Source: Escherichia phage SZH-1. From it: a stretch of DNA of 43,969 nucleotides. Shown here piece after piece: positions 13,237-17,358 of the stretch. Every line of letters begins with the position of its first letter. Position 1 is the stretch's first letter. A program made the translations under genes and the position numbers. The notes beneath the pieces are model-generated. The model did not search any database. It saw only the letters and a list, made by a program, of their open reading frames with translations, and was not told the origin of the DNA. Location of the stretch: the sequence record NC_073319.1. One strand, given 5' to 3'.

Positions 13237-13265
13237 TTGACACCTGAATAGTTAGCTATTATAGT
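13237..13265 (+). promoter_or_regulatory. Near-consensus sigma70 promoter TTGACA-N17-TATAGT with the same spacer dyad
   Basis: About 30 nt identical to the promoter at 10959; upstream of the SSB-like gene. Confidence 0.65.
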
Positions 13266-14006: not shown

Positions 14007-14165
14007 ATGATGTTTTTCTGTAAGCACGTATACCGATATATGAAGCCACTTCCGTGGTACGCGGACGAGTACCGTGCCGGGTACAGGCATGTGTGGATTT
14101 GCCGTGATTGTATGAAAATAAGACTCAGCGAAACTAAGGCACTGGATTTAAGGAAAAAGAAATGA
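14007..14165 (+). CDS. Hand-called small ORF (52 aa) coupled to the polymerase gene
   Basis: ATG with AAGGG upstream; contains WICRDC; stop overlaps the polymerase ATG. Confidence 0.35.
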   Translation: MMFFCKHVYRYMKPLPWYADEYRAGYRHVWICRDCMKIRLSETKALDLRKKK

Positions 14166-16435
14166 GCTACTTATACCTGGACTTTGAAACATTCTCCGAA
14201 GCCGATTTAAAGAAAGTTGGCTCCTACGCTTATGCTGAACACCCGTCGACCGAAGTGCTCATCTGTACCTATGCTTTTGACGACAAGCCTGTGCATATAT
14301 GGGATTGCACAGACGGCAGCGACATGCCGGGTGATTTGCATCGCGCGTTACGCCGCCTGGTTAAGCCAAACAGCCGCATCAAGATGGTGTGGCACAACGG
14401 TGGACTTTTCGATAGGCTCATCATGAAACACTGCTGGGGCTTTGATATTCCGGTAAGCAATACCATCGACACTATGATTTGGGCGTTCCGTCACGCGCTG
14501 CCAGGGTCACTTGATGCGTTGTGCGAAGTGCTGGGCGTGTCTGCAGACAACGCGAAAGATAAACGCGGAAAGGCGCTGATTCAGCGTTTCTCTAAACCGA
14601 CGCCGAAGAACTACAAAATCCGCCGTTACACCGCTGAAACACACCCGGACGAGTGGGCGCTGTTCATCAAGTACGCCGTGAGCGACATCACTGCGATGCG
14701 TGAAGTGTTCCATAAGCTGCCGCGTTGGGGTAACTCCGAGTTCGAAGACCGCGTACTGGAACTGGACCAGTTAATCAACGACCGCGGGTTCTTTGTCGAC
14801 ACGGCTCTTGCGGAGGCGGCGGTAGCGGCAGTTGAACGCCACAAGCAAGAGCTAAAAAATGAGGCCCGCGCGAAATTCGGGGGGAAGCTAACGGGGAAAG
14901 ACTTCCTGCCCATCCTTCGGGAGCTGGCACCGGCCTACAATATTTATAATGCGCAGAAGGCAACGCTCGAAGGTTTGCTAGAGGACGACGACTTGCCTGA
15001 CGATGCGCGCACAATCATTGAGATGCGCCTCGGTGCGGCCTCCACGGCGTCGACAAAATACAAACCGCTCCTGCTAGGACGGTCCAAAGACGGGCGCCGC
15101 CGCGGTTGCATCCAGTACGGTGGGGCAAAGCGCACTTTACGATTTGCGGGTAAAGGGTTCCAACCGCAAAACCTGTCGCGCGGGTACTACCATGACGACC
15201 CGACTAACGAGGAAAAGAAACTTGTACGCCAGCCGTGGGAGTCCGACGAAGACTGGAACCGTCGTCTCAACCCCCTATCGTTCGGCATCAATCTGCTGCT
15301 AAAGGGTCGGGCGCATCGCCGTTTCGATGTGTCTAAACTAACGGCCTCGACTGTCCGCAGTTGCATCATCCCGGAAAAAGGTAATAAGTTGCTCGTTGCC
15401 GACTACTCAAACGTGGAAGGGCGCGGGCTAGCCTGGACGGCGGGGGAGACGTCCGCCCTTGAGACGTTCCGCGCGGGGATTGATATCTATTGCGCCACAG
15501 CTGGTAAGATGTTCGGCATGGACCCCGTAGAACTAAAAGCCACCCGTAAGGACCTACGTCAGGTCGGGAAATGTTGCGAGCTTGGCCTCGGCTATGAGGG
15601 GGGTGTAGGGGCCTTTATGACTATGGCTAAAACTTACGGGCTGGACCTCTTTAAAATGACAGAGACAATGCGGGGCACGTTCCCCGACCACATTTGGGCG
15701 GCTACCGCCCGTGGCTACGAATGGGCCAGAATTCAGGAGGCTAAACGCCCGCCAAAGCCTGGTAAAAAAGATGAACGGGCCTCTTATGTGCTGCCTAAAG
15801 AAGTCTGGCGCACCTGCGACGCCATTAAGCGCATGTGGCGGGAAGCCCATCCGGAAACAGTGAAATTCTGGAATGACCTTAAGGATTCGGTGATAGCCGC
15901 CATTAGAAATCCGGGACGAGAGTTTTGGGCGGGGGCCCGAGTACGCCTTAACGGCGACAGAGCCATCCGCATCTGGCGTACTAAAGAGAAAGACAGACAG
16001 GGTAACTTTGTGCCGGGTTGGTGGTTGTGCGTGGAACTGCCGTCTGGGCGCATCATGTCCTACCCTGGTATAGGCTTAAGCGTCACTAAAGAGACTGACG
16101 AGGATGGGCGCGTAACAACTAACGTTCGCATTAAGTACCAGGGCGAAAATCAGACCACCCGCCAGTGGACAACTTTGTACACCCACGGCGGAAAATTGTG
16201 TGAAAACATCATCCAGGCGTTGTGCCGTGATTTACTGGTTAACGGACTCCTGACGGTCGAGGCGGCGGGCTACCCAATTGTACTCCACGTACATGACGAA
16301 TGTGTTGCCGAAACGCCAGACACGCCAGAGTACACGGTTAAAGAGATGGGTGACCTGCTATGCTCATTACCTGAGTGGGCCGAAGGGTTCCCGTTAACAT
16401 GGGCTGGGGAAGAGGTGTACCGTTATGCTAAGTAA
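14162..16435 (+). CDS. Family A DNA polymerase with 3'-5' exonuclease domain
   Basis: Exo motifs YLDFETFS, HNGGLFD, YAVSDI; polymerase motifs ADYSNVEGR, RQVGKCCELGLGYEGG, VLHVHDE. Confidence 0.9.
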   Translation: MSYLYLDFETFSEADLKKVGSYAYAEHPSTEVLICTYAFDDKPVHIWDCTDGSDMPGDLHRALRRLVKPNSRIKMVWHNGGLFDRLIMKHCWGFDIPVSNTIDTMIWAFRHALPGSLDALCEVLGVSADNAKDKRGKALIQRFSKPTPKNYKIRRYTAETHPDEWALFIKYAVSDITAMREVFHKLPRWGNSEFEDRVLELDQLINDRGFFVDTALAEAAVAAVERHKQELKNEARAKFGGKLTGKDFLPILRELAPAYNIYNAQKATLEGLLEDDDLPDDARTIIEMRLGAASTASTKYKPLLLGRSKDGRRRGCIQYGGAKRTLRFAGKGFQPQNLSRGYYHDDPTNEEKKLVRQPWESDEDWNRRLNPLSFGINLLLKGRAHRRFDVSKLTASTVRSCIIPEKGNKLLVADYSNVEGRGLAWTAGETSALETFRAGIDIYCATAGKMFGMDPVELKATRKDLRQVGKCCELGLGYEGGVGAFMTMAKTYGLDLFKMTETMRGTFPDHIWAATARGYEWARIQEAKRPPKPGKKDERASYVLPKEVWRTCDAIKRMWREAHPETVKFWNDLKDSVIAAIRNPGREFWAGARVRLNGDRAIRIWRTKEKDRQGNFVPGWWLCVELPSGRIMSYPGIGLSVTKETDEDGRVTTNVRIKYQGENQTTRQWTTLYTHGGKLCENIIQALCRDLLVNGLLTVEAAGYPIVLHVHDECVAETPDTPEYTVKEMGDLLCSLPEWAEGFPLTWAGEEVYRYAK

Positions 16436-16556
16436 ACTGATTATCGCAGTACTGGCGGGATTTGCCACCGGTGTCTACTGTCACGAGGGCCAATACGGCA
16501 TGATTGTAGCCGTATTAGGTATGTTCATCGCAATTTATCTGTGGGTGCTGGAATGA
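16425..16556 (+). CDS. Hand-called tiny membrane peptide (43 aa)
   Basis: MLSKLIIAVLAGFATGVYCHEG...; first of three ORFs linked by ATGA overlaps. Confidence 0.3.
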   Translation: MLSKLIIAVLAGFATGVYCHEGQYGMIVAVLGMFIAIYLWVLE

Positions 16557-16642
16557 AAATCTACTGGTTCTATGAAGAAGACTGTCGAATCTGTCCGCGC
16601 TGCGGGATTGAGCACACGAAACGTGAGGGGTGTGTATTATGA
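16553..16642 (+). CDS. Hand-called tiny zinc-ribbon-like peptide (29 aa)
   Basis: MKIYWFYEEDCRICPRCGIEHTKREGCVL; ATGA overlaps on both sides. Confidence 0.3.
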   Translation: MKIYWFYEEDCRICPRCGIEHTKREGCVL

Positions 16643-16791
16643 CAATGTTTGTATTTTGGACAATAGTAACCATGCTTGCACTGTTACTCGGGGCGGGAAT
16701 AGCCACGATGTTCTGTTATGGCCTGTTCTTTAAGTTTGTCGGTGTTGCCGTTCTAGGAGGGGCTTTCCTTACTTGGGTTCTACGCCCATGA
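16639..16791 (+). CDS. Hand-called tiny membrane peptide (50 aa)
   Basis: MTMFVFWTIVTMLALLLGAGIATMFCYG...; stop overlaps the VRR-NUC ATG. Confidence 0.3.
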   Translation: MTMFVFWTIVTMLALLLGAGIATMFCYGLFFKFVGVAVLGGAFLTWVLRP

Positions 16792-17102
16792 CTAAAGAGG
16801 GCCGCGTACAGAAATATGCAAAGGAGCGATTCGAGGCCCTTGGTGGCCTCGTTCGTAAACTTTCCTACGAGGGGCGTTCCGGCGCCCCTGACCTGCTGGC
16901 AATTCTCCCCGGCGGCGTCGTCTGGTTCGTCGAGGTTAAGAAAGACGAAAACACGAAGCCTGACCCCCACCAGCTACGTGAGCATGAGCGGATGCGCAAA
17001 CGTGGCGCAAATGTTTTTGTCGTTGGTTCGATAAAACAGATTGACACCCTAATAGCAGACTATTATAGTAAGCACATACCCCAACAATATAAGGAATTAT
17101 AA
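16788..17102 (+). CDS. VRR-NUC domain nuclease
   Basis: ATG at 16788 (listed ORF begins at TTG 16773); PD-(D/E)XK-like core ...PDLLAILPGGVVWFVEVKK... Confidence 0.65.
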   Translation: MTKEGRVQKYAKERFEALGGLVRKLSYEGRSGAPDLLAILPGGVVWFVEVKKDENTKPDPHQLREHERMRKRGANVFVVGSIKQIDTLIADYYSKHIPQQYKEL

Positions 17103-17103
17103 A

Positions 17104-17358
17104 ATGGCTATCGAACTTCAACTGTCAGTAAACACCATGATTATTGGTTCAATCGATTCATCTGTTCGTATCGGTAAATACACAGGGGCGTCAGTTAATT
17201 ACTCATGGTCTATGAAGGTTTCGGAAGTAAACCGTATCCTGGGTTTCGGGTCGGTTGGCCGCAAAGTGCTTGCGGAAGACGTAGCCAAACGGCTGTCCGT
17301 AGACTTCACAACGGCTGGAGAACTTATTAAGCAAGTTCAAGGCGAATTATCTAACTAA
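17104..17358 (+). CDS. Hypothetical protein (84 aa)
   Basis: ATG two nt after the upstream stop. Confidence 0.5.
   Translation: MAIELQLSVNTMIIGSIDSSVRIGKYTGASVNYSWSMKVSEVNRILGFGSVGRKVLAEDVAKRLSVDFTTAGELIKQVQGELSN

Follow-up and report, generated by a model that had tools for sequence, protein, structure and literature searches.

Introduction

In phage T7, a run of small non-essential genes, 5.3–5.9, lies between the DNA polymerase gene (gene 5) and the exonuclease gene (gene 6). Small inner-membrane proteins for superinfection exclusion are known in both virulent and temperate phages, T4 Imm and HK97 gp15 among them. Here we describe three very short open reading frames (ORFs) of Escherichia phage SZH-1 (NC_073319.1), which lie between a family A DNA polymerase and a VRR-NUC nuclease. 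The 43,969 nucleotides (nt) of this sequence are called the window, and coordinates given with no locus label are window positions. Judged by its matches, the region is of the Kagunavirus/Jerseyvirus (Guernseyvirinae) siphophage type, with Escherichia phage BUCT789 as the best match (97% identity across 16100–17150). Both Kagunavirus and Jerseyvirus phages are used in therapy and biocontrol work.

The resemblance to genes 5.3–5.9 of T7 lies in the position of the slot, in the dispensability of the small genes, their variability among relatives and the inclusion of genes of the homing-endonuclease type. There is no sequence similarity. The proteins made in T7 are soluble and inhibit host proteins, whereas two of the peptides considered here, ORF1 and ORF3, are predicted membrane peptides. 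We consider it probable that the three ORFs are real genes of the replication operon, that ORF2 is a core gene with ORF1 and ORF3 as accessories, that translational reinitiation takes part in their expression, and that their functions are of the kinds proposed below.

Results

Coding nature of the three ORFs

The polymerase gene (14162..16435, + strand, 757 amino acids (aa), stop TAA at 16433–16435) matches Pfam DNA_pol_A at 1.9e-12 and is so annotated in relatives. It is followed on the same strand by ORF1 (16425..16556, 43 aa), ORF2 (16553..16642, 29 aa) and ORF3 (16639..16791, 50 aa), each running from ATG to TGA. The VRR-NUC gene (16788..17102, + strand, 104 aa, ATG start) comes next; its product matches phrog_93 and phrog_5702, and Pfam VRR_NUC weakly. 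The lengths and coordinates originally predicted for the three ORFs were confirmed from the sequence.

Related loci were collected from GenBank matches and IMG/VR contigs (58 loci, L001–L058, or 59 with the window). They were anchored on VRR-NUC, so that the sampling was independent of the presence of the small ORFs. The ratio of nonsynonymous to synonymous divergence (dN/dS), calculated pairwise by the Nei-Gojobori method in the annotated frames, is 0.196 for ORF1, 0.086 for ORF2 and 0.173 for ORF3. The flanking VRR-NUC gene and the polymerase C-terminus give 0.133 and 0.097, respectively, and the same alignments read in shifted frames give 0.84–2.96. The exact lengths of all three ORFs are kept in 18/18 loci with the contiguous architecture of the window. 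Conservation of the frames themselves in related phages had been named as a check of the prediction, and the frames are conserved there under purifying selection.

Competing frames do not share this behavior. An antisense ORF of 63 aa (16515–16706) is open in just 11 of 17 distinct sequences, and a 53-aa ORF in an alternative + frame (16572–16733) is intact in just 8 of 17, and hence neither is conserved. The Rfam search placed no family within the chain, the top match having E = 0.72. Because purifying selection is specific to the frames, the lengths are invariant, the alternative frames fail and no non-coding signal appears, the comparison among relatives shows the three ORFs to be genuine protein-coding genes as judged by conservation. 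We infer that they are translated, and in this the original prediction is borne out by dN/dS, by the invariant lengths and by the junctions that are kept.

The argument first offered for translation was the coupling geometry. Of 20000 dinucleotide-shuffled spacers, 122 (0.6%) have a gap-free chain, using only ATG starts, that spans the distance between the polymerase stop and the start of VRR-NUC. If any start codon and gaps of at most 10 nt are allowed, such loose chains arise in 24% of the shuffles. The geometry alone is therefore only moderate evidence, and the main support is comparative.

ORF2 as a core gene, ORF1 and ORF3 as accessory genes

All 59 loci have ORF2, whereas 49–50 have ORF1 and 27 have ORF3. 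Both ORF1 and ORF3 are found in 25 loci, ORF1 only in 24, ORF3 only in 2, and neither in 8. Among GenBank phages, VRR-NUC (at least 60% identity) is found in about 451 records and ORF2 in about 443, compared with 222 for ORF1 and 119 for ORF3. The ORF1 records include 101 of Escherichia and 11 of Kagunavirus, the same numbers as for ORF2, and 106 of Salmonella, where ORF2 is found in 324; ORF3 occurs in 50 of these 324 ORF2-bearing Salmonella records. The distribution of the sequences shows ORF2 to be a core gene of the group, and ORF1 and ORF3 to behave as accessory genes that are gained or lost independently and not as one unit. The implied unit of membrane peptide, Cys-rich peptide and membrane peptide must thus be given up, since ORF1 and ORF3 occur independently of each other.

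The prediction was to fall if related phages lacked the open frames while keeping the flanking genes. Taken literally, many Jerseyviruses are of this kind for ORF1 and ORF3. The absences of ORF1 and ORF3 are clean, frame-preserving losses or gains and not decay, which argues for dispensability and not for non-coding status.

In the 59 loci, the slot between polymerase and VRR-NUC takes 15 architectures. ORF2 can be followed by ORF3, by a soluble protein of 63 aa with or without ORF3, by an HNH endonuclease or its remnant, by a micro-ORF of 23–25 aa, or by nothing. The proportion of synonymous differences (pS) is 0.24 for ORF1 and 0.28 for ORF3 against 0.41–0.62 for the flanking genes, and the lower values fit a more recent spread by recombination.

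Previous cataloguing and missed annotation

The three ORFs had been described as unlisted. They were absent from the ORF list by its length cut-off alone, and the description does not extend to databases, where they are hypothetical-protein coding sequences in BUCT789 (XQU49907-05), Bas71 (Bas71_0041-0039), Sciku, EcoPhCCP1 and others. The PHROG hidden Markov models assign ORF1 to phrog_10404 (4.4e-30, positions 1–43 of 43), ORF2 to phrog_38225 (2.5e-22, 5–32 of 36) and ORF3 to phrog_14925 (5.8e-33, 1–49 of 50); none of the three families carries a functional assignment in PHROG. The window ORFs agree with the annotated members in order, lengths and junctions, with DNA identity of up to 97%, and the genomic context (DNA polymerase to VRR-NUC, Guernseyvirinae) is shared with these members and found in the 59 loci. 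By sequence, they are already known, catalogued and lineage-restricted hypothetical genes, of which the window copies are ordinary members.

In a large-scale protein search, the matches to ORF1 and ORF3 were all at about 70% identity or higher, on contigs of 40–45 kb. Exhaustive phmmer with ORF2 against 1.84 billion representatives returned its own family and one further match (P0171), a low-complexity repeat protein that is spurious. Searches of the ORFs against Pfam, NCBIfam, PADLOC and PDB sequences gave nothing significant. Proteins of 72–79 aa that appear to fuse ORF1 with ORF2 or ORF2 with ORF3 have scrambled, frameshifted joints and fall mostly in clusters of one to three members from raw assemblies; they were not accepted as Rosetta-stone evidence.

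ORF2, a core gene of 29–36 aa, is systematically missed by annotation. Its homologue, with 82–100% protein identity, is covered by no annotated feature in NC_027993 (K1G), MT588083 (Jersey), NC_019539 (Ent1), JQ007353 (SE2), RefSeq Ent1-3 and many other reference genomes.

Junctions and expression

The original prediction described ORFs linked by ATGA overlaps in a chain anchored to the polymerase stop and the VRR-NUC start. The junction is ATGA for ORF1/ORF2 (16553), ORF2/ORF3 (16639) and ORF3/VRR-NUC (16788), but not for polymerase/ORF1, where the genes overlap by 11 nt (ATGCTAAGTAA) and the last polymerase codons, R-Y-A-K-stop, harbour the ORF1 start. The 11-nt overlap is found in 47/49 loci, and the 4-nt ATGA overlap in 49/49 loci for ORF1/ORF2, 21/27 for ORF2/ORF3 and 27/27 for ORF3/VRR-NUC. 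The junctions are kept through every rearrangement of the slot.

The strength of Shine-Dalgarno (SD) sites was expressed as the energy of the SD:anti-SD duplex, for which random positions give a background of -2.3 +/- 2.4 kcal/mol. ORF1 has an SD-like AAGAGG (16410..16415, + strand) 9 nt 5′ of its ATG, with -7.1 kcal/mol in the window and a mean of -6.8 kcal/mol over 49 loci. ORF3 has GAGGGG (16625..16630, + strand) inside the 3′ end of ORF2, with -8.8 kcal/mol in the window and a mean of -8.4. The mean for ORF2 is -3.7 kcal/mol (sd 0.09, 50 loci), which is at background level. For VRR-NUC, the mean is -3.2 kcal/mol when it follows ORF3 and -8.6 when it directly follows ORF2. In the loci without ORF3, VRR-NUC starts at the junction at the end of ORF2, with an SD as strong as that of ORF3, and the SD at the ORF2 end thus appears to serve whichever gene follows. 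Similarly, in the loci without ORF1, ORF2 is an ORF of 33–36 aa (MLSKLIIYYF...) that uses the SD and the start of ORF1, the ATG that overlaps the polymerase gene. Loci of the contiguous ORF2-ORF3 type lack 116 nt relative to the window type, and as 116 is 2 modulo 3, ORF2 comes into frame with the ATG of ORF1.

The three ORFs would share one polycistronic mRNA. Initiation driven by SD sites is expected at ORF1, overlapping the polymerase stop, and at ORF3, with its SD within the end of ORF2. ORF2 and VRR-NUC, each with a background-level SD and an ATGA junction, would be produced mainly through termination-reinitiation, ORF2 after ORF1 and VRR-NUC after ORF3. This reinitiation scheme is the simplest reading of the sequence. 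It resembles the ATGA termination-reinitiation pairs of phage and bacterial operons in the 4-nt overlap of stop and start, with ORF2 and VRR-NUC having background-level SDs, but here the dependence on upstream translation is a prediction, and one locus described below hints that it may not be absolute. The polymerase Tyr(-3) codon, which creates the ATG of ORF1, is TAT in 57/59 loci, whereas TAC is preferred at three of the four other conserved Tyr positions in the vicinity.

The cysteine/histidine peptide ORF2

ORF2 (MKIYWFYEEDCRICPRCGIEHTKREGCVL) was first described as having a CxxC..CxxC motif. It has no second, separate CxxC; the arrangement is C11-x2-C14-x2-C17...H21...C27, or CxxCxxC...H...C, in which the conserved set is C14, C17, H21 and C27. 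C14 and C27 are kept in 59/59 loci and C17 and H21 in 58/59, whereas 7/59 have R or F in place of C11. Hydrophobicity analysis predicts a soluble peptide. The dN/dS of ORF2 is the lowest of all genes tested, with a pS of 0.41 equal to that of VRR-NUC.

The four putative ligands are spaced C-x2-C-x3-H-x5-C over 14 residues. The retroviral-type CCHC zinc knuckle (C-x2-C-x4-H-x4-C) has the same 14-residue span and four ligands; ORF2, whose metal binding is putative, differs from it in the x2, x3, x5 spacing and gives no match to the Pfam zf-CCHC profile at E <= 1. CPxCG zinc-finger microproteins, such as Halobacterium Brz (PMC2253796), are a described class of proteins that are likewise very small. 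ORF2 is also soluble and has a CPxCG knuckle (C14-P-R-C17-G), but only one, whereas zinc ribbon/CPxCG proteins usually have two CPxCG-like motifs with four Cys, and the candidate C11 of ORF2 is the residue replaced in some relatives. Sub-threshold PDB alignments (E >= 0.4) land on the zinc-ribbon knuckles of COX5B, Nop10 and RpoM. As its sequence suggests, ORF2 would work like the known zinc-finger families and is assignable to none of them.

ORF2 may be a module resembling a zinc knuckle, folded round one metal ion that C14, C17, H21 and C27 would bind, and may act as a small partner or regulator of the co-expressed replication and recombination proteins. Its universality, its low dN/dS and its co-expression with polymerase and nuclease point to a role in the replication/recombination module. 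The putative metal module and the partner role, together with the roles proposed below for ORF1 and ORF3, are the weakest part of our reading.

The hydrophobic peptides ORF1 and ORF3

The original prediction gave the order membrane helix, Cys-rich peptide, membrane helix. The hydrophobic character of ORF1 and ORF3 and the solubility of ORF2 agree with this; the single helix is less certain, since ORF1 and ORF3 have two hydrophobic segments each. ORF1 and ORF3 are strongly hydrophobic, with grand average of hydropathy (GRAVY) values of 1.47 and 1.69. One segment in each has a clearly negative summed insertion free energy (ORF1 26–42, ORF3 3–21), next to a second, shorter hydrophobic stretch; in ORF1, segments 5–17 and 26–42 lie around a YCHEGQYG loop. 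The N-terminal segment of ORF1, with K4 ahead of a hydrophobic core of 13 residues, may be a cleavable signal peptide. The AlphaFold model of ORF3 is a helix over residues 2–48 with a predicted local distance difference test (pLDDT) score of 93.8, which does not decide between a hairpin and a single span. Foldseek with this model found no matches among viral structures. The alignment of ORF3 has 11 invariant columns. ORF1 and ORF3 could not be treated as paralogues, as no alignment between them was found. By these models, both are hydrophobic enough for membrane peptides.

ORF1 and ORF3 may insert into the inner membrane and have non-essential roles in host interaction, of which the likeliest would be exclusion of competing phages at the envelope or modulation of a host membrane protein. 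Their patchy distribution and replacement by other genes fit accessory host-interaction genes. They share with T4 Imm and HK97 gp15 the tiny size, the hydrophobicity, expression before the late phase, non-essentiality and patchy spread. They are, however, non-homologous to these proteins and shorter, at 43 and 50 aa. Neither ORF1 nor ORF3 matches a known superinfection-exclusion family in Pfam, PHROG, NCBIfam or PADLOC.

Discussion

Several observations weigh against the reading of a core gene with two accessories, partly expressed by reinitiation. No Ribo-seq or mass spectrometry evidence for this phage group was found in the literature, and publications including the Kagunavirus K1B4 transcriptome, the BASEL extension paper and Jerseyvirus proteomics contain nothing on the three ORFs. 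The conservation of Tyr(-3) is not decisive, as 6/29 comparable two-fold sites are as conserved. At L036 (1790–1796), a synonymous change of TAT to TAC removes the ATG of ORF1 and leaves the rest of ORF1 and ORF2 intact, so that ORF2 may not depend strictly on the translation of ORF1. In the window, AGGAGG (16755–16760, within ORF3) lies 12 nt before an in-frame TTG at 16773, which could start VRR-NUC independently and would lengthen it by 5 codons; this start was set aside as not conserved, AGGAGG being present in 5/25 and TTG in 15/25 distinct sequences. ORF2 reaches no significant E-value with zinc-finger models in Pfam, NCBIfam and PDB, and its single-sequence AlphaFold model (pLDDT 60, no secondary structure) was not used. 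The roles proposed for ORF1 and ORF3 are suggested only weakly, by analogy and patchy distribution.

Alternatively, the three peptides could form one obligate complex, in which a zinc peptide between two membrane anchors would keep the replisome or the nuclease at the inner membrane, as phi29 p1 and p16.7 do. The order of hydrophobic, Cys/His and hydrophobic peptides and the tight co-translation with polymerase and VRR-NUC would suit such a complex. So would the different hydrophobic micro-ORF of 23–25 aa at the position of ORF3 in L031 and L047, and the unrelated hydrophobic protein of 69 aa that is ATGA-coupled to VRR-NUC in the distant L066. However, ORF1 and ORF3 occur independently (25/24/2/8), most Salmonella Jerseyviruses have ORF2 without ORF1 (106/324 have it) and without ORF3 (50/324 have it), and the third position can as well be occupied by a soluble protein of 63 aa or by an HNH endonuclease, or be empty. 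With the apparent fusions being frameshift artefacts, an obligate complex is quite unlikely. That the peptides themselves have no function, the ORFs being translated bridges that pass ribosomes from polymerase to VRR-NUC or chance frames in a spacer, would agree with the frequency of loose chains in shuffles and with the dispensability of ORF1 and ORF3 in nature. It would also agree with the 4-nt overlap of VRR-NUC by any preceding gene, even in outgroups with unrelated slot genes. A bridge would need merely an open frame, yet selection on the ORFs (dN/dS 0.09–0.20) is as strong as on the flanking enzymes. C14 and C27 of ORF2 are invariant in 59 loci with one change each at C17 and H21, ORF3 keeps its 11 invariant columns, and the shortest architecture requires no bridge except ORF2. 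We regard functionless peptides as very improbable.

A role of ORF1 or ORF3, or both, in lysis timing (as holin, antiholin or pinholin-like protein) or as membrane-depolarising toxins is brought to mind by their small size, high hydrophobicity and two hydrophobic segments, and by a "holin" label near the region in the annotation of one relative, SGP009. That label belongs to a gene downstream of VRR-NUC in a clearly unreliable record. In the related genome Bas71, two holins, an endolysin and spanins make up a complete lysis cassette (Bas71_0070-72 and 0008-09) away from the polymerase operon, to which the chain belongs. The peptides lack the charged C-terminal tail typical of holins, ORF1 ending in ..LWVLE and ORF3 in ..WVLRP, and Pfam and PHROG give no lysis match, so there is very little to recommend this role. 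ORF2 could also be what is left of a homing HNH endonuclease once present in the slot, its zinc-binding part in decay, for such endonucleases have CxxC motifs and insert there repeatedly. A remnant would hardly have the lowest dN/dS (0.086) at a pS equal to that of VRR-NUC, nor be intact in 59/59 loci with start and stop conserved, and ORF2 is without detectable similarity outside its own family among the 1.84 billion representatives. Such an origin is barely credible.

The reading of core ORF2 with accessory ORF1 and ORF3 can be carried further. ORF2 might be a zinc-knuckle subunit or cofactor that binds the polymerase, VRR-NUC or DNA, with ORF1, ORF3 and the micro-transmembrane peptides as interchangeable membrane adaptors localising it, and with its production hard-wired to polymerase translation by reinitiation. 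We hold this extended scheme to be speculative and rather unlikely. If ORF2 were such a part of the Guernseyvirinae replication and recombination machinery, few conserved core proteins of tailed phages would be as small as its 29 residues.

The chain is an ordinary finding and not a new kind of system, and it matters modestly. Kagunavirus and Jerseyvirus, a large group that is isolated widely, have among their conserved core genes one of 29 aa, which many reference annotations omit. The locus also illustrates cleanly, in nature, how expression of a core microprotein and of a nuclease is maintained amid insertions and deletions, with the overlaps and one shared SD retained. What is added here is the division into core and accessory genes, the logic of SD sites and reinitiation through gene turnover, and the widespread omission of ORF2 from annotations. 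Of the BASEL Kagunavirus isolates, Bas71 has ORF3 and Bas75 lacks it, and this natural difference makes the function of these microproteins directly testable.

Genomic setting and other occupants of the slot

In Bas71, the gene order is helicase-primase, exonuclease, gp2.5-like single-stranded DNA-binding protein, a small ORF, family A DNA polymerase, the three small ORFs and VRR-NUC, followed by a small ORF, a methyltransferase and an SNF2-type helicase. By its gene content, the chain sits in the replication operon. A consensus scan found a promoter-like TTGACA-17-TATAGT at 13237..13265 (+ strand, 11/12 matches), which is likely, from its sequence, to be the start of the transcription unit that holds the chain. 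Between this site and 16992, the scan of the + strand gave neither another promoter-like site as strong as this one nor any terminator-like site, the first of which is at 16993, within the 3′ part of VRR-NUC. A second TTGACA-17-TATAGT (17041–17069, + strand, 11/12) with identical hexamers is located within VRR-NUC at its 3′ end and shortly precedes an 84-aa ORF at 17104. Within the chain there are three promoter-like matches, all weak at 9/12, one on the + strand at 16639 and two on the - strand. Promoter-like sites in the scanned region are no commoner than in shuffles.

Upstream of the polymerase, an ORF of 52 aa (14007–14165, + strand; MMFFCKHVYRY...WICRDCMKIRL...) overlaps the polymerase start at 14162 by ATGA. 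It has C5, H7, C32 and C35 and gives only a weak PHROG match (phrog_7696, E = 0.0017). With this ORF upstream and ORF2 downstream, the polymerase is flanked on both sides by tiny Cys-containing ORFs. Bas71_0043, a small hypothetical ORF of 156 nt, has the same position 5′ of the polymerase.

The soluble protein of 63–64 aa that follows ORF2 with or without ORF3 (MSNKPFSKKLAALVDMPEWEF...CAGCTHKG...) belongs to phrog_25645 (1.4e-39) and is found in L008 (1740–1931), L010 (2161–2355) and L040 (2310–2504). In L040, VRR-NUC follows it directly, and the GTG start of VRR-NUC overlaps its stop by 4 nt. The hydrophobic micro-ORFs that take the place of ORF3 in L031 (2424–2501, MTMLTTIMIIVAVFLGVAVLSKVTD) and L047 (2430–2501, MITIIAVLVALLLGAAIFSRIIG) code for single-helix peptides of 23–25 aa. 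Their start lies on the same ATGA junction as that of ORF3, but they do not align to the rest of it, and no PHROG family matches them. Genes for HNH-type homing endonucleases occur in L006 (1722–2213), L027 (1999–2505), L028 (1441–2148) and L048 (1765–2280), inserted either directly after ORF2 or between polymerase and ORF1. L053 (2361–2492) retains an HNH remnant, only the N-terminal part of 43 aa. Inteins are present in the polymerase and helicase genes of some relatives.

Over the last 100 codons of the polymerase (16133–16432), L001–L058 fall into two deep alleles, with 93–99% or about 66% nt identity to the window, and these alleles do not track the identity of VRR-NUC. LSPA1 (L003, L055), for instance, has a polymerase end of the window type, yet its ORF1 is 67% and its VRR-NUC 77% identical. 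The mismatch between the polymerase allele and ORF1 or VRR-NUC suggests recombination breakpoints near the polymerase/ORF1 junction. In the outgroups, the slot holds other genes: a CxxC-rich HNH-like protein of 200 aa in Dhillonvirus PNS1, and a soluble protein of 117 aa with an HExxH-like motif, IAHECTH, in Serratia phage Smarc3 (L092 1451–1804). Each of these two genes shares its last 4 nt with the start of VRR-NUC. The 69-aa hydrophobic protein of the distant phage L066 lies at 2295–2504 and is coupled to VRR-NUC by ATGA.

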